DNA of 62,227 nt, from the NCBI GenBank assembly GCA_049521495.1, contig JBEKOT010000007.1:1-62227 (forward strand), read 5' to 3'. The first letter of the stretch is position 1. Each line of letters begins with the position of its first letter. Below are positions 45,731 to 62,227 of this stretch, piece by piece. A program made the translations under genes and the position numbers. The DNA comes from Syntrophorhabdales bacterium (GTDB lineage: Bacteria > Desulfobacterota > Syntrophorhabdia > Syntrophorhabdales > WCHB1-27). The notes under the pieces were generated by a model. That model ran no database searches. It was not told the DNA's origin and saw nothing but the letters and a program-made list of their open reading frames with translations.

Positions 45731-45907
45731 TTACTTCTTCTCCTTATTCCGGCCCTTCATCCTGTGGGTGATCGAGGCTTTCATGGATTTCACTTCCCGG
45801 CAATAGTCGCACATGCCCTCGCTGTCGAGGAGGTCCGAGAAGACCTGCTTTCCGCACCTGGAGCAAGCCTTATGCCATGGCTTCGTCGCCTTTACCGTAT
45901 TCTGCAT
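45731..45907 (-). CDS. 58-aa Cys4 zinc-finger-like microprotein, below the ORF-track cutoff
   Basis: MQNTVKATKPWHKACSRCGKQVFSDLLDSEGMCDYCREVK...KEKK*; AGGAAAAGG upstream; dedicated promoter. Confidence 0.7.
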   Translation of the reverse strand: MQNTVKATKPWHKACSRCGKQVFSDLLDSEGMCDYCREVKSMKASITHRMKGRNKEKK

Positions 45908-46383: not shown

Positions 46384-46656
46384 ATGACGAAAGCGGAGCT
46401 GGTTGGCAGCGTTGCAACTGCTGCAGGAGTAAAGACATCCGTGGCGGAAAAGGTCCTTAAGTCCTTCATCGACAATATCGAAAGGGCGCTGAAGAAGGGT
46501 GATAAGATCACATTGACGGGCTTCGGCACCTTCCAGTGCACAAAGAGGGCCCAGAGGACAGGCAGGAACCCGAGGACCGGGAAGGAGATCAAGATTCCCG
46601 CTTGCAGCGTGCCGAAATTCAAACCCGGCAATAAACTGAAGGAGGCGCTGAAATAA
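46384..46656 (+). CDS. hup: DNA-binding protein HU
   Basis: MTKAELV, GFGTF, RTGRNPRTG, PKFKPG; GAGGAGG RBS. Confidence 0.96.
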   Translation: MTKAELVGSVATAAGVKTSVAEKVLKSFIDNIERALKKGDKITLTGFGTFQCTKRAQRTGRNPRTGKEIKIPACSVPKFKPGNKLKEALK

Positions 46657-49655: not shown

Positions 49656-50651
49656 TCAGTTCCGGCCTGTCCCGGGCAGCCAGAGGTAATAAAAGCCCGG
49701 TTCGAGGGGGGAGAAGATATCAGGGAGATTGATGTCCACGAGGGGCAAAGGTGTGCCGCTTCCGGCGTCAACGGCGGAATTGTAAAGGTTGTCTTCCGGG
49801 TACTTCTCGTGCCTGTATACTACGACCCTCGCGCCCTCGGGGAGCGACGCAAGCCTCTTAGCCTCCCTGAGGCCGTCCTTCACGTAGCCGACGGAATCGA
49901 CGAGCCCCAACCGTAGCGCTTCATCGGCAAGGTATATCCGGGCGCTTGCGATCTTTCGCAGGTTCTCCGGCCCAACCTTGCGATGGCGCTCGACGAGATC
50001 GAGGAACCTTTTACCCATCTCATCCGTGAGACCCTGGAATATCCTCTGCTCTTCGGCAGTTGACGGGCGGAAGGGCGAGCCTATGTCCTTCTCGCTGCCC
50101 GATTTGCTTACCTCAACGGCAAGACCGAGCTTGTCCATTAGGCCCGATACCTTCGGTGTAACGAGGAGGACGCCGATGGAGCCGGTAACGGTAGTAGGAT
50201 GGGCTATGATCAGGTCCGCAGGGAGCGCCATGTAATAACCCCCCGATGCGGCGACGTCCATCAAAACAGCCACTATTTTGGCCCCGGTCTTTTCCTTGAA
50301 GTCGGAGATCTCGCGGTAGAGTATGTCGCTTGCGGTGATCGAGCCGCCGGGCGAGTTGATCTCGAAGAGGACCGCCTTCACCTCATTGTCCTTCTCCGCC
50401 CGCCGCAGCCTGGAGACAACCTCCTGGACCGCGCTCGCGCGGCTGCCCGAAAAAACCTTTCTCGGCTTATCCGACAGGAACCCGGACACAGGGATTACGA
50501 GCACCTTCCCCCTCTCCTTGCCCTCGATAGCGTATTCTTTAAGGGGTTCCCCGGAAGGGACGCCGAGCTGCACTTTCATCCTGAAACAGGAGACGCAAAG
50601 GACGGCAGCCGCCAACAGAACGAAGACAAAGGGCAGGGATCGCGCTCTCAC
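49656..50651 (-). CDS. sppA: Signal peptide peptidase SppA (peptidase S49, short form)
   Basis: INSPGG, VAASGGYY, TGSIGV, KSGSEKD, GLVD. Confidence 0.92.
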   Translation of the reverse strand: MRARSLPFVFVLLAAAVLCVSCFRMKVQLGVPSGEPLKEYAIEGKERGKVLVIPVSGFLSDKPRKVFSGSRASAVQEVVSRLRRAEKDNEVKAVLFEINSPGGSITASDILYREISDFKEKTGAKIVAVLMDVAASGGYYMALPADLIIAHPTTVTGSIGVLLVTPKVSGLMDKLGLAVEVSKSGSEKDIGSPFRPSTAEEQRIFQGLTDEMGKRFLDLVERHRKVGPENLRKIASARIYLADEALRLGLVDSVGYVKDGLREAKRLASLPEGARVVVYRHEKYPEDNLYNSAVDAGSGTPLPLVDINLPDIFSPLEPGFYYLWLPGTGRN

Positions 50652-50686
50652 GGGATTGCTCCTTTCCGGCCGGAAGGGCCTATCAA

Positions 50687-50715
50687 ATTCTCAACCCTTC
50701 CGGGCCTGCTGTCAA
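50687..50715 (-). promoter_or_regulatory. Putative sigma70 promoter of sppA
   Basis: TTGACA-17 nt-GAGAAT. Confidence 0.45.
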
Positions 50716-50858
50716 GGGAGTCTCTTTTTTTCAATTCGCAATCACGGCACAAGTTGCCGAAGAGGAGCAGGGGCATGTCCCTGAGCGCGGGCGGAGCTCG
50801 CGGCAACCGGTGCGGGGCGTAATCCCGAGCGTTCGCTGAAAGCGATGTGTAAACTTTG

Positions 50859-50883
50859 CTGCTGTAAAGAAATTTAACAGCAG
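50859..50883. promoter_or_regulatory. Candidate enhancer (UAS) for the sigma54 activator
   Basis: Imperfect palindrome CTGCTGTAAA-GAAA-TTTAACAGCAG about 200 bp upstream of the sigma54 promoter. Confidence 0.4.
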
Positions 50884-51045
50884 AAAGTGCCCGTTTACCA
50901 AGGGTTTTCCCTTTTCCGATAAGCGAGAAGAATGTTAACACCGGCAAAAGGGGCGTAAATGCCTGCTTTTTCATCAAAAGCGGCTGTTTTGTTATCGTTT
51001 TTGCCCTTGCTCTCCGAGGGGCTGGTGGCGCCTTAATGGCAGTAA

Positions 51046-51058
51046 TATCAATTATTTG
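51046..51058 (+). promoter_or_regulatory. IHF-binding site
   Basis: TATCAA-TTAT-TTG matches WATCAANNNNTTR exactly, just upstream of the -24 element. Confidence 0.65.
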
Positions 51059-51064
51059 TGCGAG

Positions 51065-51080
51065 TGGCATCTCTATTGCA
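51065..51080 (+). promoter_or_regulatory. Sigma54 (-24/-12) promoter
   Basis: TGGCAT-CTCTA-TTGCA, GG-N10-GC spacing. Confidence 0.8.
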
Positions 51081-51124
51081 AATGAGAGTTCATTGCATAC
51101 AAGACCTGAAAGGGAGGATAGACG

Positions 51125-52123
51125 ATGGAAAAGAAAGTGCTGCTGATAGATGACGAACCCTCCCTGAGAAGAAGCGTCTCAATGGGACTCATGCAGAAGG
51201 GTTATCAGACGGAGCCATGCGAGAGCGGAATGAAGGCGCTCCAGACCCTGGAAACCTACAAGAAGAAGCAGGTGTCCCTCGACTGCGCCATAGTAGACAT
51301 CAGGCTGCCGGACATTGACGGCCTGAAGCTCCTTAAGGTGATAAAGTTCAGCTACCCCCAACTCCCCGTGATTATCATCACCGGTTACGGAAGCGAGACA
51401 GTGGCCGAAGAGGCGAGGACGGCAGACGGCTATCTGGAGAAACCCTTTACCATGGAAGACCTGGCCAAGGTGCTGGAGGCGATCGAGGCGCCCGCGCCGG
51501 ATGCCGCCCCGCCGCCTCCGAAGGAGAAAACGGCGACGGCCCAATCGACAAGCGCCTACGCCCTCATTCGTCTAGGCAAAGAAGCAAATCTCCTGGATAT
51601 TTACCGCACCCTTTACTACCACGGTAACGTCCTTTATTGCGACGCCACGAGGGGCGACTGCGACATGGTGCTCCTCTTGCAGGCCCCAACGCTCGACGAC
51701 ATCAAAGAGGTGGCGGAAAAGGAGATCAAGGGAATGAAAGGCGTAGCCGAAGTCTCCCTGCTTCCCGTGGATGCGCCAATGCTTACAGACAACGTTGTCA
51801 GCATAATGGGCTCTGTGGACAGGGCGCTTGGCAGGGACAAGGGCGAGAACGTGGCCGCCTCCAACCAGGCAGCGAGAACAAGGGTTTCGTCCTACGTCAT
51901 GCTTGAAGTGGAAAAGGAAAAGATGGAAGGGATCTACCCGGCCCTTTACTTCAACGACCAGGTAGTCAACTGCGACTGCACGGACGGGAGATTCAACGTC
52001 GTCCTTCTCGTAAAAGGGACGAGCTTCAGCGAAATCGAGGCCGCCGTCCGGAACAAGTTCAAGGCCATAGACGGTGTGCTAAGGATCAAGGAATACCCGA
52101 TAATCACGCTCTTCGAAGCGTGA
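51125..52123 (+). CDS. Response regulator: REC plus two Lrp/AsnC ligand-binding-like domains, no DNA-binding domain
   Basis: IDDE, VDIRLP (phospho-Asp), ITGYG, EKPF; two repeats AY.LI...NVLYCD...GD.D.VLLL and SYV.L...VVNCD...GRFNVVLLV. Confidence 0.8.
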   Translation: MEKKVLLIDDEPSLRRSVSMGLMQKGYQTEPCESGMKALQTLETYKKKQVSLDCAIVDIRLPDIDGLKLLKVIKFSYPQLPVIIITGYGSETVAEEARTADGYLEKPFTMEDLAKVLEAIEAPAPDAAPPPPKEKTATAQSTSAYALIRLGKEANLLDIYRTLYYHGNVLYCDATRGDCDMVLLLQAPTLDDIKEVAEKEIKGMKGVAEVSLLPVDAPMLTDNVVSIMGSVDRALGRDKGENVAASNQAARTRVSSYVMLEVEKEKMEGIYPALYFNDQVVNCDCTDGRFNVVLLVKGTSFSEIEAAVRNKFKAIDGVLRIKEYPIITLFEA

Positions 52124-52145
52124 TCGGATTGGCAGGAGAAGAGCG

Positions 52146-52658
52146 ATGCTGCAAGCAGAATCGGGACAGGACAAATTGGAAAACGGGTTCTCGAGCTCCA
52201 AAGTGGCCTTCAAGGTCGAGCTCTGGAAATATCAGGGTGAGAATGGTGCGCTCATACCTTTGCTTCAGTCGGCCCAGGACGCCTACGGCTATATACCCCC
52301 GTCGGCCATCGACCACATCAGCCAGATCGTCGGCATACCGGATGCAGAGATATACGGCGTCATCACCTTCTACTCCCAGTTCCGCCTCAAGCCCATGGGG
52401 AGAAATATCATCAAGGTCTGCGACGGGACGGCGTGCCACGTGAACTCCTCGTCCGCCATCATAAAGACCATCGAGAGCGAGTTGGGTGTCGCCGGGGACG
52501 AAACGACCGACGACGGCATGTTCACCTTGCAGAAGGTGGCGTGCCTCGGCTGCTGCTCGCTGTCGCCCGTGGTCATGATAAACGATGAGACCTACGGGCG
52601 CCTTACAGCCAAGAAAATACAGCAGCTCCTCAAAGAATACAGGGAGCTAGAGCCCTGA
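52146..52658 (+). CDS. nuoE: NuoE/HydC-like [2Fe-2S] subunit (StnA-like)
   Basis: LIPLLQ.AQ..YGYI, TFYSQF, CDGTACH, CLGCC...PV. Confidence 0.9.
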   Translation: MLQAESGQDKLENGFSSSKVAFKVELWKYQGENGALIPLLQSAQDAYGYIPPSAIDHISQIVGIPDAEIYGVITFYSQFRLKPMGRNIIKVCDGTACHVNSSSAIIKTIESELGVAGDETTDDGMFTLQKVACLGCCSLSPVVMINDETYGRLTAKKIQQLLKEYRELEP

Positions 52659-52706
52659 AGGAGGGAGGAGACGCGAGACGGGCCCCGGCAACGGAATCGG
52701 CAATAA

Positions 52707-54488
52707 ATGGAGAGGGAGCAGATGAAGACTATAAGAATCGGACTTGGAACGTGCGGCGTCTCGGCCGGTGGCGAGAAGACCTTCGAAGCGGTCAAACATG
52801 AGATAGAGCAAAAGAACATTCAGGCCCTGGTCAAAGAGACGGGCTGCAACGGCATGTGCTACAGGGAGCCCCTGCTCGAGGTGATCGACGAGGCCCGTAA
52901 TTCCTATCTTTATGGCGAGGTGACGCCTGAGAAGGCCATCAGGATCCTCGACGAGCATGTGCAGAAGGGGACGCCCATCGAGGAATGGATCGTGCAGAGC
53001 GAAAGGCCTTCGGAAGACGACCTTTTCTTCAAGAAGCAGAGAAGGATCGTGCTACGGAACTGCGGGATCATAGACCCCAACTCGATAGACGAGTATATCG
53101 CAGCGGGCGGATATCAGGCCATCCAGAAAGTGTTGAACGGGTATTCGCCTGAAGAGGTTATAGAAATCATCACGGCCTCGGGCTTGCGGGGCAGAGGGGG
53201 CGGGGGCTTTCTTACCGGTGTGAAATGGCGTTTCTGCAGGCAGTCTCCCGGCCCGCTGAAATACATCATCTGCAATGCGGACGAGGGCGACCCTGGCGCC
53301 TTCATGGACCGGAGCACCCTGGAGGGGGACCCCCACTCCGTGCTGGAGGGGATGATGATCTGCGCCTACGCCATCGGTGCTCAGGAGGGTTACATTTACG
53401 TGCGCGCCGAGTACCCCAAGGCGGTCCAGAGGCTGAAGCACGCCATCCGGGAGCTTCTGGCAAGAGGCTTCCTCGGCGCCAACATCTTCGGGTCAGCCAT
53501 GAATTTCTATATAAAGATAAAGGAAGGGGCAGGGGCCTTCGTGTGCGGCGAGGAGACGGCCCTTATAGCCTCCATCGAGGGCAGACGGGGGATGCCCCGC
53601 TTCAGACCCCCCTTTCCCGCCCAGAGCGGCCTGTGGGGGAGGCCCACAAATATCAACAACGTGGAAACTTATGCAAACGTACCCTGGATCATCACGAACG
53701 GGGCGGAGTCGTTTGCGTCGATGGGCACGGAAGGGAGCAAAGGCTCCAAGGTTTTTGCCCTTGCGGGCAAAGTCCGAAGGGGCGGTCTGGCAGAAGTGCC
53801 CATGGGCATCACGATAAACGAGATAGTCTACGAGATCGGCGGCGGCATAAAGGGCGACAGGAAATTCAAGGCCGTGCAGATGGGCGGTCCCTCGGGTGGA
53901 TGCATCCCCGCGTCGATGGGCGACCTCCAGATAGACTATCAGCAGATCAATAAGACAGGCGCCATTATGGGCTCCGGCGGTCTGGTCGTGCTGGACGAGA
54001 CGACCTGCATGGTCGAGATGGCGAAGTTTTTTCTTCGGTTCACCCAGGACGAATCCTGCGGCAAATGCACGTTCTGCCGGGTGGGTACCAAAAGGATGCT
54101 TGAGATTCTCGAACGGATCACCGACGGCAACGGCAGGGAGGGCGATGTGGCTCTTCTTGAGCACCTGGCGAACCAGATCAGGAACAACACTATCTGCGGG
54201 CTGGGCCAGACGGCGCCCAACCCTGTTCTCACCACCCTCAAGTATTTCCGGGAAGAATACGATGCCCATATCCGCCTCAAGAAATGCCCCGCCCACAGTT
54301 GCCCGGCCCTTCTGACCTATACGATAAGGGAAGAGGCGTGCAAGGGCTGCATGGCCTGCGCCAAGGCCTGCCCTGTCGAGGCCATCAGCGGAGAAAAAAA
54401 GAAACCCCATGCCATCGATCCGTCTTCCTGCATAAAGTGCGGCAAGTGTTTCGAGACATGCAGGTTCGACGCAGTGCTCAAGGACTAA
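52707..54488 (+). CDS. nuoF: NuoF/HydB-like FMN/NAD-binding subunit with N-terminal thioredoxin-like Fe-S and C-terminal 2x[4Fe-4S] (StnB-like)
   Basis: GLRGRGGGGF, NADEGDPGAFMDR, CGEETAL, PPFPA, CGKC..CR, CGLGQTAPNP, H...KCPA..C, two CxxCxxCxxxC. Confidence 0.92.
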   Translation: MEREQMKTIRIGLGTCGVSAGGEKTFEAVKHEIEQKNIQALVKETGCNGMCYREPLLEVIDEARNSYLYGEVTPEKAIRILDEHVQKGTPIEEWIVQSERPSEDDLFFKKQRRIVLRNCGIIDPNSIDEYIAAGGYQAIQKVLNGYSPEEVIEIITASGLRGRGGGGFLTGVKWRFCRQSPGPLKYIICNADEGDPGAFMDRSTLEGDPHSVLEGMMICAYAIGAQEGYIYVRAEYPKAVQRLKHAIRELLARGFLGANIFGSAMNFYIKIKEGAGAFVCGEETALIASIEGRRGMPRFRPPFPAQSGLWGRPTNINNVETYANVPWIITNGAESFASMGTEGSKGSKVFALAGKVRRGGLAEVPMGITINEIVYEIGGGIKGDRKFKAVQMGGPSGGCIPASMGDLQIDYQQINKTGAIMGSGGLVVLDETTCMVEMAKFFLRFTQDESCGKCTFCRVGTKRMLEILERITDGNGREGDVALLEHLANQIRNNTICGLGQTAPNPVLTTLKYFREEYDAHIRLKKCPAHSCPALLTYTIREEACKGCMACAKACPVEAISGEKKKPHAIDPSSCIKCGKCFETCRFDAVLKD

Positions 54489-54501
54489 ATGGAGACGAGC
54501 C

Positions 54502-57500
54502 ATGACAGAACCAATCAAGATAAAGATCAACGACAGGGAATACGAGGCCAGTCCGGGCGAAACCATACTCGATGTCGTCCGGAGGTATGGAGTAGACACA
54601 ATACCGACACTCTGCCACGACCCGAAACTGCCGCCTTACGGTTCCTGCTACCTCTGCATAGTTGAGGTGGAAGGGACGGAAAAGCTCGTCCCTTCATGCT
54701 CGAGCCCGGTCGTGCCCGGCATGGCGGTGCATACGAATAACGAGAGGATCACCCAATCGAGGAAAGCGGCCCTGGAGCTGCTCCTCTCCAACCACTACGC
54801 CGACTGCCTGGGCCCGTGCACGCAAGCATGTCCGGCCGGCGTTGACGTGCAGGGCTATATAGCCCTCATGTCCATGGGCCGATACAGGGAAGCGGTAAAG
54901 CTCATCAAGGAGAAAAACCCCCTGCCGATAGTCTGCGGCCGCGTCTGCGTGCGCCCATGCGAGACAGCCTGCCGGCGGAATCTCGTCGACGATCGGGTGG
55001 GCATCGACTACCTGAAGCGCTACGCGTCGGACGTTGATATAGAAGACCCGTGGACCCCCGAGGTGCCTGCGAGGAACGGCAAGAGGGTGGCCGTCGTGGG
55101 CGGCGGGCCTGCCGGTCTCACATGCGCCTACTTCCTCACCCTCAACGGCTACGGAGCAACCATATTCGAAAGCGCCCCGAAGCTTGGGGGCATGCTGCGC
55201 TACGGCATCCCCGAGTACCGCCTTCCAAAGGCGCTCCTCGACAAGGAGATCAAGTGGATTACGGACCTGGGGATTGAAGTTCATACGGGGATGGAGCTGG
55301 GAAAGGATTTAACGCTGGAGCACTTCAAAGCAATGGGATTCGACGCGGTCTTTCTCGGCCTCGGAGCGCAGAAGGCAAAGGCTATGGGTATTGCCGGCGA
55401 AGAGACGACCGAAGGTATCATAGGCGGCGTCGATTTCCTGCGCCGGATGCAGACGGACGACCGGCCGGCCATATCGGGAACGGTCATCGTGGTGGGAGGC
55501 GGCAATACGGCCGTCGACGCAGCCCGGACTTCCTTGCGGATCGGCGCCGGCAAAGTTATCATCCTCTACCGGAGGACCGTGAGCGAGATGCCCGCCCACC
55601 CCATGGAGGTGGATGCGGCTGCAGAGGAAGGGGTCGAGATGATCTTCCTGTCGGCGCCCCTTTCCATAGTTGCTAATAATGGCCGGGTGGAAGCTCTCCG
55701 GTGCATCCGCATGGAGCTCGGCGAGACGGACGCCAGCGGCCGTCGCAGCCCCGTCCCGGTCGATGGCTCGGAGTACGACATCCCTTGCGATTTCGTGATT
55801 TCTGCGATCGGGCAGGATATCGACCTGGGAACGATCGACAAAGAGAGCGGCCTTAAAACAACCCGCCAGAAGGCCATAGTTGTCGATAACTCGACCTTCG
55901 CCACCTCGATCCCGGGCGTCTTCGCCGGCGGCGATGTCGCAACAGGGCCGGCGGTAGCGGTCGACGCGATTGCCCACGGCAGAGCCGCAGCTTTGGCTAT
56001 ACATCGGTATTTGCAGACCGGCAGCGCATATTACGGAGCAAAGCCGTTTCTGTCCCGAAAGGAAGCCTTCGGCGAGATGGCGCAAAGTGAATTCCTCCAG
56101 GTAAAGCGGGTCGAGAGGGAGCTGATGGCCGAGCTGCCCGTCGAGGAAAGGATCAAGAGCCAGGCGGAAGTGGAGCTGGGTTTCACGGAAGCACAGGTCG
56201 CAAATGAAACAGGCCGGTGCCTCGAGTGCGGCTGCACGGCCTATTTCGACTGCGACCTTCGTAAATACGCCACGGATTTTGGAGTCGATATCGCCAAATT
56301 CACCGGAGATACGAGAAGGTACAAGGTAGACGCAAGCCACCCCCTGATCTCACTCGACCCCAACAAGTGCATCAACTGCGGCCGCTGCGTCAGAACCTGT
56401 TCCGAGATAGTTCGGATATCGGCCCTCGGCTTCGTCAACAGGGGGTTCAAATCAGTGGTCAAGCCGTCCATGGAGAAGCCCCTCCTGGAGACTACCTGCA
56501 TCTCCTGCGGCAACTGCATAGATGCCTGCCCGACGGGTGCCATCACCGAGAAGCTGCCTTTCCGCAAGCCCGGCCCCTGGACGTTTGAGGAAAAGGAATC
56601 GGTTTGCAGCTTCTGCGGTGTCGGCTGCGTCCTGAACTACCGGGTCTTCCACGACGGCCTCTTCACGGTATCGAGCGTGAATGGGGGCTCTCACAACAAG
56701 GGTTACCTCTGCACCAGGGGACGCTTCGGCTACCGGTACATGATGGAGGAGGAGCGCCTCCATAATCCCTTGATCAGGAAGCGGGGCCGGTGGGGGGAGA
56801 CCACGTGGGAGGAAGCCATAAAGTACGCGGCGCAGGGGCTCAAGGCAGTAATAGCTAAGTCAGGCACGCGCTCGGTGGCAGCTTTTGGCTCGCCAAAAAT
56901 GACGAACGAAGAGCTCTACCTCCTGCAGAAGTTTGTCCGGCAAGGTTTGGGGACCAACAATATAGGGAGCTTCTCGAACATCGATGGCGGGGGTGAAAAG
57001 GACGCTCTCGACGCCATGTTCGGCCTCACTGTCTCGACTGCCACTATGGACGATCTGAAGGCGGCGGACGTAATACTGGTGATAAACACCGATCCGGGCC
57101 GGGACGCTTTAGTGGCGGAGATCAAGATAAAGGCCGAGCTTAAGAGGGGTGCGAAGGTCATAACCGTCGCCTCATCGGAAATCCCCCTCGTCAAATTCTC
57201 CCATCTTTGGATAGACTCGAAGCGGGGTACGAACACCGCCCTGGTATGCGGCATCTGCCGGTATATCCTCGAAAAGGGATGGGAAAGCGCCTCTTTCATA
57301 AAGAAGAGGACCGAGGGGTTCGAGGAGTTCAGGGAATCGACGGCCCGCTTCGACGCGGGGCTGGTAGCTGAAATAACCGGGGTCAGCAGGGAGAAGCTCC
57401 AGGTTCTGCTCGACCTCGTCGGAGACCCCAAAAATAACGTGGTGGTCGTCTACAACATCGACTCGTTGTGGGAAAAATCGAAGAACGACCTCCAGGCCCT

Positions 57501-58266
57501 CGGGAACCTAATGATGCTCTCGGGCAGGGTCGGAAAACGGGGGAACGGTATAATTCTTTTGCGGGACTTCGCCAATGCCCAGGGTCTTTTAGATATGGGC
57601 GTGGATACGGGATACCTGCCGGGGTATGTGAAGCGCGGCGACGGGCCGGGGATCTCGGCGCTCGAAAAGCTCTGGGGCGTTACGCTGCAGGACGTTTTTG
57701 AGCCGGTCCACCTAAGGGAGGCCATGGAGGCGGACCGTATCAAGGCCCTCATGATCTTCGGCGAGGACCCGCTTTTCGCGACCTCCAACTTGAGGCTGAC
57801 AAGCGGCGCGGAATTCATGGTTGTAGTTGACTCCTTCATGACGGCAACGGCAAGAGAAGCCGACGTAGTGCTGCCAGCTTCGCTGCCCATCGAGACGGAG
57901 GGTACCTTCACCGCCTGCGACAGGAGGCTTCAGAGAACGGCCAGGATACTGGCGCCGGCGGCAGGGATGGAGAACTGGCGCATACTGGATGCCCTGGCGA
58001 AAGCTATGGGCGTAAGCCTGGCCCCGAAAGGGCCGCGCGCCGTCGGGAACGAGATCAGAAAGGCCGTTCCCTTCTATAGAATGATCGCTGACGGCCCCTT
58101 CTGGGGCAAGGGTCTCTTCGAGAAAGCATTCATGACCCCCGACGGCAAGGGGCGATTCGCCCTCTTCGACCTGGACGTGACTACGTCTTCGAAGGAAAAG
58201 GTGCGGTGCCTCTTCGACGAGAACTACTTCGACCTGATGATAGGGAAGCAGATCGAAAAACGATAG
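54502..58266 (+). CDS. 1254-aa Fe-S flavoprotein: [2Fe-2S], GltD-like FAD/NADP module, ferredoxins and Mo-less FdhA-like scaffold (StnC-like)
   Basis: CHD...GSC..C...C; CPAGVD, CGRVC..PCE..C; GGGPAG; GGGNTA...YRR; CINCGRC..C; CISCGNC...CP; CSFCGVGC...LC; no Cys/Sec-His ligand at the NN.. position. Confidence 0.88.
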   Translation: MTEPIKIKINDREYEASPGETILDVVRRYGVDTIPTLCHDPKLPPYGSCYLCIVEVEGTEKLVPSCSSPVVPGMAVHTNNERITQSRKAALELLLSNHYADCLGPCTQACPAGVDVQGYIALMSMGRYREAVKLIKEKNPLPIVCGRVCVRPCETACRRNLVDDRVGIDYLKRYASDVDIEDPWTPEVPARNGKRVAVVGGGPAGLTCAYFLTLNGYGATIFESAPKLGGMLRYGIPEYRLPKALLDKEIKWITDLGIEVHTGMELGKDLTLEHFKAMGFDAVFLGLGAQKAKAMGIAGEETTEGIIGGVDFLRRMQTDDRPAISGTVIVVGGGNTAVDAARTSLRIGAGKVIILYRRTVSEMPAHPMEVDAAAEEGVEMIFLSAPLSIVANNGRVEALRCIRMELGETDASGRRSPVPVDGSEYDIPCDFVISAIGQDIDLGTIDKESGLKTTRQKAIVVDNSTFATSIPGVFAGGDVATGPAVAVDAIAHGRAAALAIHRYLQTGSAYYGAKPFLSRKEAFGEMAQSEFLQVKRVERELMAELPVEERIKSQAEVELGFTEAQVANETGRCLECGCTAYFDCDLRKYATDFGVDIAKFTGDTRRYKVDASHPLISLDPNKCINCGRCVRTCSEIVRISALGFVNRGFKSVVKPSMEKPLLETTCISCGNCIDACPTGAITEKLPFRKPGPWTFEEKESVCSFCGVGCVLNYRVFHDGLFTVSSVNGGSHNKGYLCTRGRFGYRYMMEEERLHNPLIRKRGRWGETTWEEAIKYAAQGLKAVIAKSGTRSVAAFGSPKMTNEELYLLQKFVRQGLGTNNIGSFSNIDGGGEKDALDAMFGLTVSTATMDDLKAADVILVINTDPGRDALVAEIKIKAELKRGAKVITVASSEIPLVKFSHLWIDSKRGTNTALVCGICRYILEKGWESASFIKKRTEGFEEFRESTARFDAGLVAEITGVSREKLQVLLDLVGDPKNNVVVVYNIDSLWEKSKNDLQALGNLMMLSGRVGKRGNGIILLRDFANAQGLLDMGVDTGYLPGYVKRGDGPGISALEKLWGVTLQDVFEPVHLREAMEADRIKALMIFGEDPLFATSNLRLTSGAEFMVVVDSFMTATAREADVVLPASLPIETEGTFTACDRRLQRTARILAPAAGMENWRILDALAKAMGVSLAPKGPRAVGNEIRKAVPFYRMIADGPFWGKGLFEKAFMTPDGKGRFALFDLDVTTSSKEKVRCLFDENYFDLMIGKQIEKR

Positions 58267-58314
58267 TGAGCGAATAATGATTGCCGGCCGCAAAGTGCCG
58301 CTGGGGAACTAATA

Positions 58315-58323
58315 TGTTATAGT
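58315..58323 (+). promoter_or_regulatory. Extended -10 promoter for the kinase-regulator pair
   Basis: TGtTATAGT; supports a kinase start at 58351 (GAGG SD). Confidence 0.5.
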
Positions 58324-58350
58324 ATGCAAACTGATCGAGAGGTAGGGCGC

Positions 58351-60018
58351 ATGGCACATCCGGACGGGGAAAGACTTGAAAAGGACTCAAAAGCAAAAGA
58401 AGGGCCGCAGGGCGGCAAAGGCGGGGCGACGTCGAGCGGACTCGAGCGAAGATACAGGGAACTCTTCGAGAAGGCGCCGACGCCTCTCCTCATTTCGCGG
58501 CTGAACGGAGACATCCTAGAGGCGAACCCCGCCTTCTATAAGCTACTCGACTATCCGGCCGACGGCTCGGCGAAGCTGAACTTCATGAGGGACAGACTTT
58601 ACCAGACGCCCGAAGTGAGGACCAAGGTCTGTCAGAGGCTCCTCGAAGACGGTATGCTCGAGGATATCGAATTGAACCTCCTCGACCGGTGCGGGAACCC
58701 CGTCCCGGTTCTGGTTTCGTACGCATTCATCGACCTGGCCGGGGAACGCTGCATCGAATCGGCCTATAAAAACATAAGCTTGCGCCACGAGCTGGAAAAA
58801 AAGCTGATCGAGCAAAACGAAAACCTTGAAAAAAGCGTCCTCGAGCGGACGGTCGACCTTGAGAACCAGAAAAACCTTCTCATGAAGAAGAACCAGGAAT
58901 TGAAAGCAATGACCGAAAAGCTGAAAGAGCACAAGACCAGGCTCCAGACGCTTTTCAAGGCCATCACGGACACCGTTACCGTGATCGATACGGACTTCAA
59001 CATCCTAATGTGCAATCAGAAGCACATCGGCAGGGGGAAGTGCTACAAGAAGGTCTTCTTACAGGAAGAGCGCTGCCAGGAATGCCTCGCGCAAAAGGTC
59101 TTCACCGAGAGGACCTCCGTCTCCATGGAAAAGGTTGTGGACGACGAATACTACCTGCTCCAGGCTTACCCGATCTTCGACGCGGAATGCCGGATCACGG
59201 GCATCCTGGAGATATCGAGACTCATCACCAAGGAAAAAAACATGGAGCGTCAGCTCCTTCAGGCGGATAAACTGGCCTCTCTCGGGCAGCTCGTCTCCGG
59301 TATCGGCCATGAGATCAACAACCCCAATACCTTTATCCGGGGCAACCTCTTCATCGTCCAGGAGGCGATGGGAGATATCTTCCCCATCCTTGACGAACAC
59401 TACGGGGCTCACTCGGACATGAAGATCGCGCGCCTTGATTACGATGTTTTCAGGAAGAACATCCCGGTCCTCATGCAGGATATGGCGGAAGGCGCGAACC
59501 GGATCAAGGGCATTGTCGACGGGCTCCGCAAATTCGGCAAGCGGGACGAGGGGTTCCTGAACGAAGCCGTCAACCTCAACCTGATCACGGAAAGCTGCCT
59601 CAGGCTGGTGGACAATCAGATCAGGCGCACTGCGGACGTCAGGGCCAGCCTCGAGGAGGAGCTGCCCGCCATCATGGGCAACTCACAGAAGCTGCAGCAG
59701 GTAATCCTGAATATCCTGATTAATGCCTCCCAAGCCATCGACAAGCCGAGAGGGACCATCAAGGTCTCCACAAAGTTCGACGGCAAAGAAGTGATCGTCA
59801 GGGTGAAGGACAACGGAAAGGGCATGGAGGAAAAGACCATAAGCCAGATTTTCGACCCCTTCTTTACGACGAAGAGGCACCAGGGCGGGACCGGCCTCGG
59901 CCTTTCCATCGCTTACGGCATCATCAAGGAACATAAGGGCAGGATAGAGGTGGTCAGCGAGGTTGGGGTGGGGACAACTTTCTGCACCTACCTTCCCGCT
60001 GCGCAGGCGGAGGCGTGA
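58351..60018 (+). CDS. Cytoplasmic PAS-PAS sensor histidine kinase
   Basis: No TM; PAS (ELFEKAP..ANPAF), coiled coil, Cys-containing PAS, GIGHEINNP, NILINA, DNGKG, PFFTTK, GTGLGL. Confidence 0.93.
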   Translation: MAHPDGERLEKDSKAKEGPQGGKGGATSSGLERRYRELFEKAPTPLLISRLNGDILEANPAFYKLLDYPADGSAKLNFMRDRLYQTPEVRTKVCQRLLEDGMLEDIELNLLDRCGNPVPVLVSYAFIDLAGERCIESAYKNISLRHELEKKLIEQNENLEKSVLERTVDLENQKNLLMKKNQELKAMTEKLKEHKTRLQTLFKAITDTVTVIDTDFNILMCNQKHIGRGKCYKKVFLQEERCQECLAQKVFTERTSVSMEKVVDDEYYLLQAYPIFDAECRITGILEISRLITKEKNMERQLLQADKLASLGQLVSGIGHEINNPNTFIRGNLFIVQEAMGDIFPILDEHYGAHSDMKIARLDYDVFRKNIPVLMQDMAEGANRIKGIVDGLRKFGKRDEGFLNEAVNLNLITESCLRLVDNQIRRTADVRASLEEELPAIMGNSQKLQQVILNILINASQAIDKPRGTIKVSTKFDGKEVIVRVKDNGKGMEEKTISQIFDPFFTTKRHQGGTGLGLSIAYGIIKEHKGRIEVVSEVGVGTTFCTYLPAAQAEA

Positions 60019-60022
60019 TGAA

Positions 60023-61387
60023 ATGAACCGGATATTGGTAATCGACGATGACCAGGCGGTACTCAATTATCTGAAAATTTTTCTGCTCCAGTCGGGCCAA
60101 TTCGACGTTACCACCTTCAGTAACAGCACGAAGGCAGTGGCCGAGATTTGGAAGAATTCCTATGACCTCCTCATTCTAGACATGGACATGCCCGATGTGA
60201 CCGGGCTCGACATACTGAAGAACATCCACGAGAACAATATCGACATCGAGACGATCGTCCTCACCGGTGTGGAGGACGTGGAGCTCGCAGTTTCGGCGGT
60301 GAAGCTGGGAGCTATGGAGTACCTGACAAAGCCCGTGGACAACGAGCGCCTTCTCAGGCTGATCAATACCGCCCTGGAGCACAGGAGGCACCAGAAGATT
60401 ATCGAGGAGGGGGAGTCCGTCTCCGCCGATGACCTGGAGTTCAAGGACGCCTTCAAGGATATTGTCACGGGCAATGAAAAGATGCACAAACTCTTTTCAA
60501 TGGTTGAGAAGATGGCCGTGACCGAGAACAGCATCCTCGTCTGGGGCGAGAGCGGAACCGGAAAGGAATTGATAGCCCGGGCCATCCATCGCATCAGCAA
60601 GAGAAGCAACCAGAGTTTTATCGCAGTCAACGCCGGGGCCTTCGCCAACGAGCTTTTCGCATCCGAGTTCTTCGGGCACAGCCAGGGCGCGTTCACGGGC
60701 GCAACCTCGCACAAAAGGGGCCTTGTGGAAGAGGCGGACAAGGGTACGCTCTTTCTGGACGAGATAGGCGAGTTGGCTCTACCTATACAGGTAAAGCTGC
60801 TCAGGGTGCTTCAGGAGGGCGAGTTCTTCCGCCTCGGCTCTACAAAGAACCAGAAGGTCGATGTGAGGATTATCGCCGCCACCAACAAGAACCTCCACGA
60901 AGAGATAAAGAAGGGCAATTTCAGGAAAGACCTTTTTTATCGACTCAATATGAATTCCGTCTACCTCCCGCCGCTGCGCGAGAGGAAGGGCGATGTCCCG
61001 CTTTTGGCCAACCACTTTCTGGCCGCATTCTGCAGGGGCAACGGCAAGAAGATCGAGAGGATATCGGAAGGAGCGATGAAGCTCCTAACTCATTACGACT
61101 ACCCCGGGAACGTGCGGGAGATGATGAACATCATAAACAGCGCTGTTATCATCGAATCGACCGGCGAACTGCGGAAGAAGTCTTTTCCCAATTATTTTCT
61201 GGAAAACACCGTAGTAGGCGACAACAACATAGGCGACATTTCGGTAAAAAGCCTGGAAGAAGTCGAGAATGACCACATCAGGAAGATCCTCGCCTATACG
61301 GGCGGCAACAGGACTAAGGCCTCCCAGATCCTTGGCATATCTCGAATAAGTCTGCTCGCGAAGATCAGGAAGTACAAACTGGAGTAA
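60023..61387 (+). CDS. Sigma54-dependent response regulator (NtrC family)
   Basis: REC, GESGTGKE, GAFTGA, LFLDEIGEL, YPGNVRE, Fis-type HTH. Confidence 0.96.
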   Translation: MNRILVIDDDQAVLNYLKIFLLQSGQFDVTTFSNSTKAVAEIWKNSYDLLILDMDMPDVTGLDILKNIHENNIDIETIVLTGVEDVELAVSAVKLGAMEYLTKPVDNERLLRLINTALEHRRHQKIIEEGESVSADDLEFKDAFKDIVTGNEKMHKLFSMVEKMAVTENSILVWGESGTGKELIARAIHRISKRSNQSFIAVNAGAFANELFASEFFGHSQGAFTGATSHKRGLVEEADKGTLFLDEIGELALPIQVKLLRVLQEGEFFRLGSTKNQKVDVRIIAATNKNLHEEIKKGNFRKDLFYRLNMNSVYLPPLRERKGDVPLLANHFLAAFCRGNGKKIERISEGAMKLLTHYDYPGNVREMMNIINSAVIIESTGELRKKSFPNYFLENTVVGDNNIGDISVKSLEEVENDHIRKILAYTGGNRTKASQILGISRISLLAKIRKYKLE

Positions 61388-61456
61388 TCCTAGGCGCCCA
61401 CGCCATGCGGTGATCCGTGACCAAGCCTTCGGTGCGGCTCCCGCCCGACCGGCAGT

Positions 61457-61972
61457 TTAGGAGCCGCAGCCCTCGCCGCACGTGCTGCCGCACGATGAGG
61501 CGCCGCAGCCGCAGGTCTCCTGATGGGCCTCCGCGAGCTCATCTGTAGTCGCGTCCCGCACGTCGAGGACCTCTACGTCGAAGCTTAGCGTCATGCCGGC
61601 AAGAGGATGGTTCCCGTCGAGGAGGACCTTATCCTCCTCGATCCTGGCTATGGTCGCCACCATTGCCCCATCGGGTGCGCGCACCCTGAGCGCCATGCCG
61701 ACCGAAATCTCGGGCAACTCCCTAAACTGCTCTTTCTTGACGAGGAAAAGGAGTTCAGGCCGGCGCTCCCCGTATGCTTCTTCGGGCTTCACGGTGAAGG
61801 AGAAGGCGTCCTTCGGCGATCTTCCCTCAAGGGCATTCTCGAAACCGCTTATCATCCCCGACCCCTGGATATACGTAAGGGGCGCCCGCTCCTTCGACGA
61901 TTCGAGGACTTCCCCTTCCTCGTTCGTAAGGGTATAATTGACTGTGACAGCTTTGTCTTTGGCTATTATCAT
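61457..61972 (-). CDS. slyD: FKBP-type peptidyl-prolyl isomerase SlyD
   Basis: V.YTL, GMISGFE.AL, PEEAYGER, DGNHPLAG..L.F, Cys-rich tail. Confidence 0.93.
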   Translation of the reverse strand: MIIAKDKAVTVNYTLTNEEGEVLESSKERAPLTYIQGSGMISGFENALEGRSPKDAFSFTVKPEEAYGERRPELLFLVKKEQFRELPEISVGMALRVRAPDGAMVATIARIEEDKVLLDGNHPLAGMTLSFDVEVLDVRDATTDELAEAHQETCGCGASSCGSTCGEGCGS

Positions 61973-62100
61973 GATGCTCCTCTCTTGCACCGCCTTCGCT
62001 AAGGGCGGCGTGATCTGTCTGTTGAAATAGTTTAAACGTGTTTAGGCCCCAATATCCAGTGGGGGTATTATGCGCGGCCGGGTTGATTTCGCGCTGTCTC

Positions 62101-62227
62101 TCAGGCGGCCTCACCTAAAAGCCGGAGCATCCCGTCGGCGCTCGATGTCGGCAAAGCGCAGGCGTTATTGGAGCAGACGTACGCAAGGGCTGCTCCACGG
62201 TCCGAGCGGTACGGCTGCACAAAAGGA
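62101..62227 (-). CDS. 3' end of a YyaL/SPATA20-like thioredoxin domain-containing protein (partial)
   Basis: ...GAALAYVCSNNACALPTSSADGMLRLLGEAA*, the AYVC.N..C.LP C-terminal motif. Confidence 0.7.
   Translation of the reverse strand, partial: PFVQPYRSDRGAALAYVCSNNACALPTSSADGMLRLLGEAA

Follow-up and report, generated by a model that had tools for sequence, protein, structure and literature searches.

When does an anaerobe make a transhydrogenase of the Stn/NfnABC type, and which proteins give the order? In anaerobes that live on little energy, enzymes of this type connect the pools of NADH, NADPH and ferredoxin, and their structures are recent. The question is raised by contig JBEKOT010000007.1 of a Syntrophorhabdales bacterium (GCA_049521495.1, a metagenome-assembled genome (MAG) of 2.97 Mb that is 92% complete), of which we analysed positions 1 to 62,227 (the window). 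Here, an intergenic region of 473 bp (50652-51124) has a divergent SppA-like protease gene on one side and six plus-strand genes on the other, encoding a response regulator with a receiver and two RAM domains (REC-RAM-RAM), three transhydrogenase subunits, a histidine kinase and a sigma-54 activator. Our analysis suggests that REC-RAM-RAM and the transhydrogenase are under a local switch of the two-component, sigma-54 dependent kind, a reading to which we give a probability of about 0.6. The six genes are as follows.

51125-52123, plus strand: REC-RAM-RAM response regulator; receiver and two Lrp/AsnC-type RAM domains (two AsnC_trans_reg matches in Pfam), no DNA-binding domain
52146-52658, plus strand: StnA/NfnC-like subunit, NuoE-type, [2Fe-2S]; best PDB matches 9bov_C, 9n5u_C (NfnC) and 8oh5_A
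52707-54488, plus strand: StnB/NfnB-like subunit, NuoF-type, FMN/NAD and Fe-S; best PDB matches 9bov_B, 8oh5_B and 9n5u_B
54502-58266, plus strand: StnC/NfnA-like large subunit of 1254 aa; GltD NADPH domain, NuoG-like part and truncated FdhF-like domain
58351-60018, plus strand: cytoplasmic PAS-PAS-HisKA-HATPase histidine kinase (Pfam), H-box GHEINNP
60023-61387, plus strand: NtrC-class sigma-54 activator, REC-AAA+-HTH_8; REC (D53), GESGTGK, GAFTGA

A conserved -24/-12 site and its upstream blocks

The elements that may control these genes are listed below, with distances counted from the predicted transcription start site (TSS); UAS stands for upstream activating sequence, IHF for integration host factor, UTR for untranslated region.

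50856-50886, plus strand: block A, UAS-like palindrome TTGCTGCTGTAAA-N5-TTAACAGCAGAAA, centred at about -220
50918-50940, plus strand: block B, conserved GATAAGCGAGAAGAATGTTAACA, at about -162; the strongest footprint in the 18-sequence alignment
50987-50997, plus strand: block D, conserved TTTnCTTATC, at about -99 (alignment)
51030-51049, plus strand: block E, conserved gccTAAnT-N4-GTAAT, at about -52 (alignment)
51046-51058, plus strand: exact match TATCAATTATTTG to the IHF consensus of E. coli (WATCAANNNNTTR); the -24 element follows 7 bp downstream
51065-51080, plus strand: predicted sigma-54 promoter TGGCATctctaTTGCA, one mismatch to TGGCAC-N5-TTGCW; predicted TSS near 51091
51091-51124, plus strand: predicted 5' UTR; CAcAnAAAAT-like block at 51091-51106, Shine-Dalgarno sequence AAAGGGAGG at 51109-51117
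58315-58323, plus strand: predicted extended -10 promoter TGTTATAGT of the kinase-activator pair; all orthologous loci examined have TGnTATAGT before the kinase

Transcription from a sigma-54 promoter begins about 12 nt after the GC doublet and needs RpoN together with an activator. We counted a site as a candidate when its GG and GC doublets stood 10 bp apart within TGGCAC-N5-TTGCW, in the right orientation and with a gene downstream. TGGCATctctaTTGCA is such a site, and ATG 51125 lies 60 bp downstream of it. Matches of this kind are not in significant excess within the window (18 at two mismatches or fewer, against 20.7 expected). We therefore do not lean on the match itself; what carries the claim is conservation. 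Thirty loci encoding REC-RAM-RAM homologues were taken from 41 related genomes, and the region 40-125 bp before each start codon was scanned for a GG-N10-GC site with at most two mismatches, with shuffled sequences as control. A -24/-12 site was found 57-107 bp upstream of the gene in 29 of the 30 loci, against a shuffle mean of 0.13. Therefore, although the window alone gives no significant excess, the site is not a chance match, and the comparison of loci indicates that the promoter is under selection. No other conserved -24/-12 site was found inside the related loci. The window holds one more match with a single mismatch, TGGCATaaggcTTGCT on the minus strand at 45862-45877, which lies within a small Cys-rich open reading frame (about 58 aa) and was put aside as probably a chance match.

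The genome encodes RpoN (TIGR02395, 440 bits against a cut-off of 277 bits; contig C30) and 19 sigma-54 activators. Moreover, the strict pattern TGGCAY-N5-TTGCW has 17 matches in the genome, TGGCATctctaTTGCA among them, and for seven of these an activator gene is found no more than 10 kb away, where 1.4 would be expected (P about 3e-4). Local action of activators thus appears to be the rule in this genome.

When 18 promoters were aligned, footprints stood out against diverged surroundings at blocks A, B, D and E, at the -24/-12 element and at the 5' UTR block. The arms of block A (50856-50868 and 50874-50886) are 13 nt long and 85% complementary; its consensus across the 18 promoters is TTGCTnTAAAnAtTcTTnATAGC, and its core, TTTACAG/CTGTAAA, reappears in distant families. 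Block B, whose motif in the alignment can also be written GATAAGCGAGAAGAATnTTAACA, has a single good match in the genome; a REC-RAM-RAM paralogue on contig C233 carries a weaker copy at its promoter. These two REC-RAM-RAM promoters are the only places in the genome where blocks A and B occur. The CAcAnAAAAT-like block is kept in operon-linked and stand-alone REC-RAM-RAM genes alike and is not a known riboswitch, since Rfam gave no match in 50000-62227.

A sequence-only reading of the window had already listed a UAS palindrome, an IHF site, the -24/-12 promoter, the six genes and a separate promoter for the kinase, and each of these elements lies where it was placed. The inverted repeat and the sigma-54 site also hold up in the comparison with relatives. 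For IHF the outcome is divided. The exact consensus is present, as one of just two in the window, but it is not conserved: exact matches occur in 3 of 29 loci, and matches with at most one mismatch in 9 of 29, no more than in shuffled sequences (7.0 +/- 2.2). Three genes of the HU/IHF family were found, none of which reaches the IHF-alpha or IHF-beta cut-off in this 92%-complete MAG (best 99 against 115 bits). A role of IHF at this promoter is thus not supported by conservation or gene content. Block E stands at a more usual distance and may be the site of an architectural protein; as a conserved block it is loosely like the reverse IHF consensus, which it matches with 0-1 mismatch at unchanged position in four relatives. 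The HU/IHF-family gene at 46384-46650 (plus strand) scores about equally with the HU and IHF models, all under cut-off, and a tRNA-like sequence lies on the minus strand just upstream of it.

The transhydrogenase and the REC-RAM-RAM protein

Which enzyme would this promoter serve? The three subunits have the Pfam architecture of Stn/NfnABC, and each finds its top PDB chains in 9bov, 8oh5 and 9n5u. The NuoF-like subunit, which carries two extra 4Fe-4S motifs, matches 9bov_B, 8oh5_B and 9n5u_B with E values of 1e-254 to 1e-261. The large subunit matches 9bov_A (6e-264), 8oh5_C (StnC; 2.7e-237) and 9n5u_A (NfnA); it contains PF00384 and PF04879, PF01568 (Molydop_binding) was not found in it, and 87 residues follow the PF00384 match. 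8oh5 is StnABC of Sporomusa ovata (PMC7483475, PMC10482914), and the layout of its StnC, GltD followed by NuoG and an FdhF-like part (PMC10482914), is that of the large subunit here. With StnABC and with NfnABC of the Bfu family (Caldicellulosiruptor saccharolyticus, Thermococcus; PMC11829005, PMC12018979), the enzyme shares the domain make-up of all three subunits: a NuoE-like subunit, a NuoF-like subunit with extra Fe-S domains, and a GltD, NuoG-like and truncated FdhF-like subunit. It differs in its large subunit, which has about 80 aa more and whose last 220 or so residues align poorly. By these comparisons, the enzyme is a Stn/NfnABC (Bfu-family) homologue, for which NADPH:ferredoxin/NAD transhydrogenase activity is predicted; it may instead be a related NADPH enzyme of the NsoABC type.

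The sequence-only reading knew of no described regulation for Stn-type enzymes. Our literature searches for sigma-54, two-component or response-regulator control of Stn/NfnABC/Bfu enzymes likewise returned nothing, and the literature searched makes no mention of a REC-RAM-RAM gene or sigma-54 control for StnABC or NfnABC. The circuit is thus newly seen for an enzyme of this family.

The unusual part of the system is the uncharacterised REC-RAM-RAM protein. An Lrp/AsnC regulator was considered and rejected, because the two RAM domains come with no helix-turn-helix (HTH), by Pfam or by fold, and the N-terminus is a receiver. The residues of a working receiver, namely acid pocket, phospho-acceptor Asp and conserved Lys (D9, D10, D58 and K106), are invariant among 31 homologues; in the wider family (25-55% identity), the phospho-acceptor Asp is sometimes lost. 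A whole-protein Foldseek search returned CheY-like matches only, and the C-terminal half was therefore modelled separately (AlphaFold2, residues 139-332; pLDDT 88, pTM 0.83). In the model, two beta-alpha-beta-beta-alpha-beta domains appear packed as a pseudo-dimer, as in the two-lobed siroheme decarboxylase NirDL (PDB 4czc; Foldseek TM score 0.65 over both RAM domains) and in single RAM modules (0.8-0.9, normalised to target length). Unlike Lrp/AsnC, RAM and NirDL proteins, to which it is 10-20% identical, REC-RAM-RAM has a fused receiver and no HTH. The architecture forms about 50 clusters at 50% identity among 1.8 billion representatives, and no paper on REC-RAM fusions was found in the literature searched.

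A second REC-RAM-RAM gene in the genome, 69% identical to the first, is broken across two contigs (C233:2780-3197 and C208:2-973). It has its own promoter, TGGCACggcccTTGCT, with copies of blocks A and B, and is followed by an MFS-type transporter gene and no enzyme genes. A search for a conserved operon behind the paralogue found none, the downstream genes being unrelated. Stand-alone paralogues in general bear this promoter and upstream-block unit in the absence of enzyme genes. Judged by its distribution, the promoter/UAS unit follows the REC-RAM-RAM gene rather than the enzyme itself. In two loci of one family (L037 and L047, family f4), the full REC-RAM-RAM gene is preceded at a distance of about 1.4 kb by an extra, shorter gene that encodes a receiver and a single RAM domain and has a perfect -24/-12 site of its own.

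What REC-RAM-RAM does can be narrowed to candidate roles: it may be a feedback element, a ligand sensor or a partner of the enzyme. Always first in line, it is a candidate post-translational or feedback regulator of the electron-bifurcating complex. More tentatively, it could represent response regulators of a new class, with an output other than DNA binding: a tandem RAM module, gated by phosphorylation and ligand, which binds the Stn/NfnABC complex or the kinase or activator, and which tunes electron bifurcation or feeds back on its own sigma-54 promoter. If this were true, the sigma-54/UAS unit before every copy would make REC-RAM-RAM the hub of a small redox-homeostasis regulon of syntrophs.

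The kinase-activator pair and its linkage to the operon

The kinase was described from sequence as cytoplasmic, PAS-containing and separately promoted, and the activator as carrying GAFTGA; all of this is borne out. The kinase matches PF02518 (1e-25) and, weakly, HisKA with GHEINNP, and has no membrane segment (maximum 19-residue hydropathy 1.1). Its second PAS-like domain carries a C-x10-C-x2-C triad at residues 231-245 (59041-59085), which is conserved in 20 of 20 orthologues, including that of a distant family at only 45% identity, and is a possible metal or Fe-S site. The activator contains PF00158 (2e-67), PF00072 and PF02954, with GAFTGA at residues 222-227. Its HTH helix, ISR[IV][SN]L[LI][AS]K, is kept in the orthologues and differs from that of the 18 other activators of the genome.

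The promoter of the pair was missed by a generic sigma-70 scan, because its -35 element is weak, and was recovered by comparative alignment. Given the conserved extended -10 box, ATG 58351 is taken as the kinase start in place of 58324; for the activator, the start is ATG 60023, 4 nt past the kinase stop, and not TTG 59963. The successive gaps among the six genes are 22, 48, 13, 84 and 4 bp, the first three of which tie REC-RAM-RAM to the enzyme genes with no terminator between. There is also none between the enzyme genes and the kinase-activator promoter, so that in this genus transcription of the enzyme genes may run on into the pair, which would allow positive autoregulation. The orthologous kinases of other genera have at their N-terminus a domain of about 165 aa that carries the motif ELxCLYR and matches nothing in Pfam; the kinase of this genus lacks this domain, and its deletion (58267-58350, compared with L023, L025, L037 and others) leaves the 84 bp between large subunit and kinase.

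The gene order is kept beyond this genome, as the synteny check suggested for the locus bears out. REC-RAM-RAM, NuoE, NuoF, GltD/NuoG, kinase and activator follow each other in 16 loci of two Syntrophorhabdales families. Among cultured relatives, Syntrophorhabdus aromaticivorans has a REC-RAM-RAM protein of 67% identity. Across the phylum, the REC-RAM-RAM protein was found in 9 of 401 sampled genomes. Five matches outside Syntrophorhabdales, all in MAGs and belonging to two families, are 34-40% identical and show the same order as far as their contigs reach; their loci have related upstream repeats (TTTACAG core), a -24 element and a weaker -12 element. The kinase-activator pair adjoins the transhydrogenase genes in every contig long enough, in three families. 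Moreover, among the 41 relatives, an activator orthologue (at least 74% identity) occurs in 21 of the 24 that have REC-RAM-RAM, the other three having a frameshifted copy or fragmented assemblies, and 15 of the 17 that lack REC-RAM-RAM lack the activator too. The two exceptions (G010 and G025) have the pair. The MAG stems from peat or wetland, and DNA runs that hold the locus sequence come from peat and wetland metagenomes only.

Only in this genus is REC-RAM-RAM coupled directly to the enzyme genes, across a gap of 22 bp. Where a spacer precedes the NuoE-like gene (L023:3528-3731, L025, L024, L027, L028 and L037-L049), it contains conserved hairpins, such as CCCCCTnCAGGAAC...CCTGnAGGGGG; in one genus it contains repeated GAAGGTTGAG units and their complements. 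These hairpins may be a terminator, an attenuator or a processing site.

By analogy, the arrangement is of the ordinary sigma-54 two-component type. It shares with NtrB/NtrC-type systems a kinase, a REC-AAA+(GAFTGA)-HTH_8 activator, upstream sites and a -24/-12 promoter of the adjoining operon; in contrast to them, its apparent target is a bifurcating transhydrogenase, and the first gene of the target operon itself encodes a receiver protein. AtoS/AtoC and ZraS/ZraR are the best NCBIfam matches of the pair, which is not orthologous to AtoS/AtoC because its scores are far under the equivalog cut-offs (AtoC 402 against 714 bits, AtoS 219 against 646 bits). An activator placed beside its own sigma-54 operon is routine in this phylum. 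In Desulfovibrio vulgaris, the inference from a co-localised activator, a conserved -24/-12 site and a palindrome has been validated for its activators (PMC4641369), and OrpR, sigma-54 and IHF control the orp operons (PMC8359166, PMC3897727). The PAS domain of OrpR has three conserved cysteines and senses redox through a [4Fe-4S] cluster (PMC8359166). Both systems belong to anaerobes of the former Deltaproteobacteria and combine a sigma-54 promoter with a three-Cys PAS domain. However, the PAS domain of OrpR lies inside the activator with a C-x8-C-x3-C spacing, whereas here C-x10-C-x2-C lies in a separate kinase and cluster binding is putative; IHF, part of OrpR control, is not supported here.

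A probable local switch and its alternatives

What we observe are the elements in the sequence and their conservation, the shared gene order, the co-occurrence of genes and the family of the enzyme; as sequence, the circuit is real, and it very probably functions. From this we infer who binds where, what the signal is and what REC-RAM-RAM does. The soluble PAS kinase and its translationally coupled NtrC-type activator would be made from their own extended -10 promoter. An intracellular cue, presumably redox-related and possibly sensed through the three-cysteine site of the second PAS-like domain, would trigger the kinase and lead to phosphorylation of the activator. The phosphorylated activator would bind palindrome A, block B and perhaps block D, 100-220 bp upstream, and open the sigma-54 promoter at 51065-51080. 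The transcript from about 51091 would encode REC-RAM-RAM first and, 22 bp further on in this genus, the three Stn/NfnABC-type subunits. The same activator probably fires the stand-alone paralogue on C233/C208, the bearer of the same upstream blocks. REC-RAM-RAM, which has no DNA-binding domain, would serve for feedback or tuning, through contact with other proteins or by binding a ligand.

Several observations weigh against this scheme. The -12 element of the most distant family has TTGA in place of TTGC. The genome holds 18 activators besides the one at this locus. In G010, the kinase-activator pair has no adjacent enzyme genes and the genome has no REC-RAM-RAM. G024 has a decayed REC-RAM-RAM remnant of 72 codons (L052:16725-17080) upstream of an otherwise intact enzyme-kinase-activator cluster; the remnant keeps the -24 element, its -12 element is degenerate (TTACG), and the intact promoters belong to two intact stand-alone REC-RAM-RAM copies elsewhere in that genome. 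Most other genera have a hairpin-rich spacer of about 170-290 bp between REC-RAM-RAM and the enzyme genes, where the enzyme may be attenuated or separately transcribed. The cysteine pattern is the one thing that points to redox as the signal, and no run among the RNA runs searched for the locus holds its sequence.

The sequence-only reading had preferred one kinase feeding two receivers. In this version, the kinase phosphorylates both the activator and REC-RAM-RAM, and the latter serves as a phosphate sink or as a second output branch. REC-RAM-RAM does retain all phospho-acceptor residues, the same system would induce it, and no kinase of its own lies beside it. However, its receiver is 29% identical to that of the activator, which ranks 43rd among 45 REC matches in the genome, the two differ at most aligned helix-1 positions, and the REC-RAM-RAM paralogues lie far from the kinase. 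Because the two REC domains are so dissimilar, this part of the claim finds no support in the sequence, and we consider a shared kinase doubtful.

Another alternative concerns the target. The sigma-54/UAS unit could serve REC-RAM-RAM as its true output, with the transhydrogenase genes as passengers that are mostly transcribed independently or attenuated and are joined to the sigma-54 transcript just in this genus. The stand-alone paralogues, with the same promoter and upstream blocks and unrelated genes downstream, argue for it, as do the structured spacers of most genera, the enzyme cluster of G024 that has lost REC-RAM-RAM and a good -12 element, and the extra short REC-RAM genes with a -24/-12 site of their own just upstream in some genomes. 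Against it, every lineage with REC-RAM-RAM has it as the gene directly before the enzyme genes, even at an identity as low as 34%, and in the window the 22-bp gap contains no terminator. Moreover, the spacers yielded no conserved promoter motif such as the one that precedes the kinase. We regard an enzyme that is a mere passenger as unlikely. The same evidence does modify the idea of a transhydrogenase circuit with its own kinase and activator: promoter, linkage and enzyme family stand, but the enzyme as the defining target is not supported, because the stand-alone paralogues carry the unit ahead of unrelated genes.

Finally, a real promoter fired by an unlinked activator, with the adjacent pair controlling other genes and merely syntenic, would fit the other activators of the genome and the orphan pair of G010, but it is quite improbable given the linkage in three families, the co-occurrence of the genes, the lack of any other conserved -24/-12 site within the loci and the enrichment of the genome's -24/-12 promoters near activator genes.

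We thus favour the local switch for REC-RAM-RAM and the transhydrogenase. A conserved, dedicated sensor-activator pair offers a concrete handle on when cells make Stn/NfnABC, and the signal of the kinase should reveal the kind of redox imbalance to which syntrophic degraders of aromatics respond with this enzyme.

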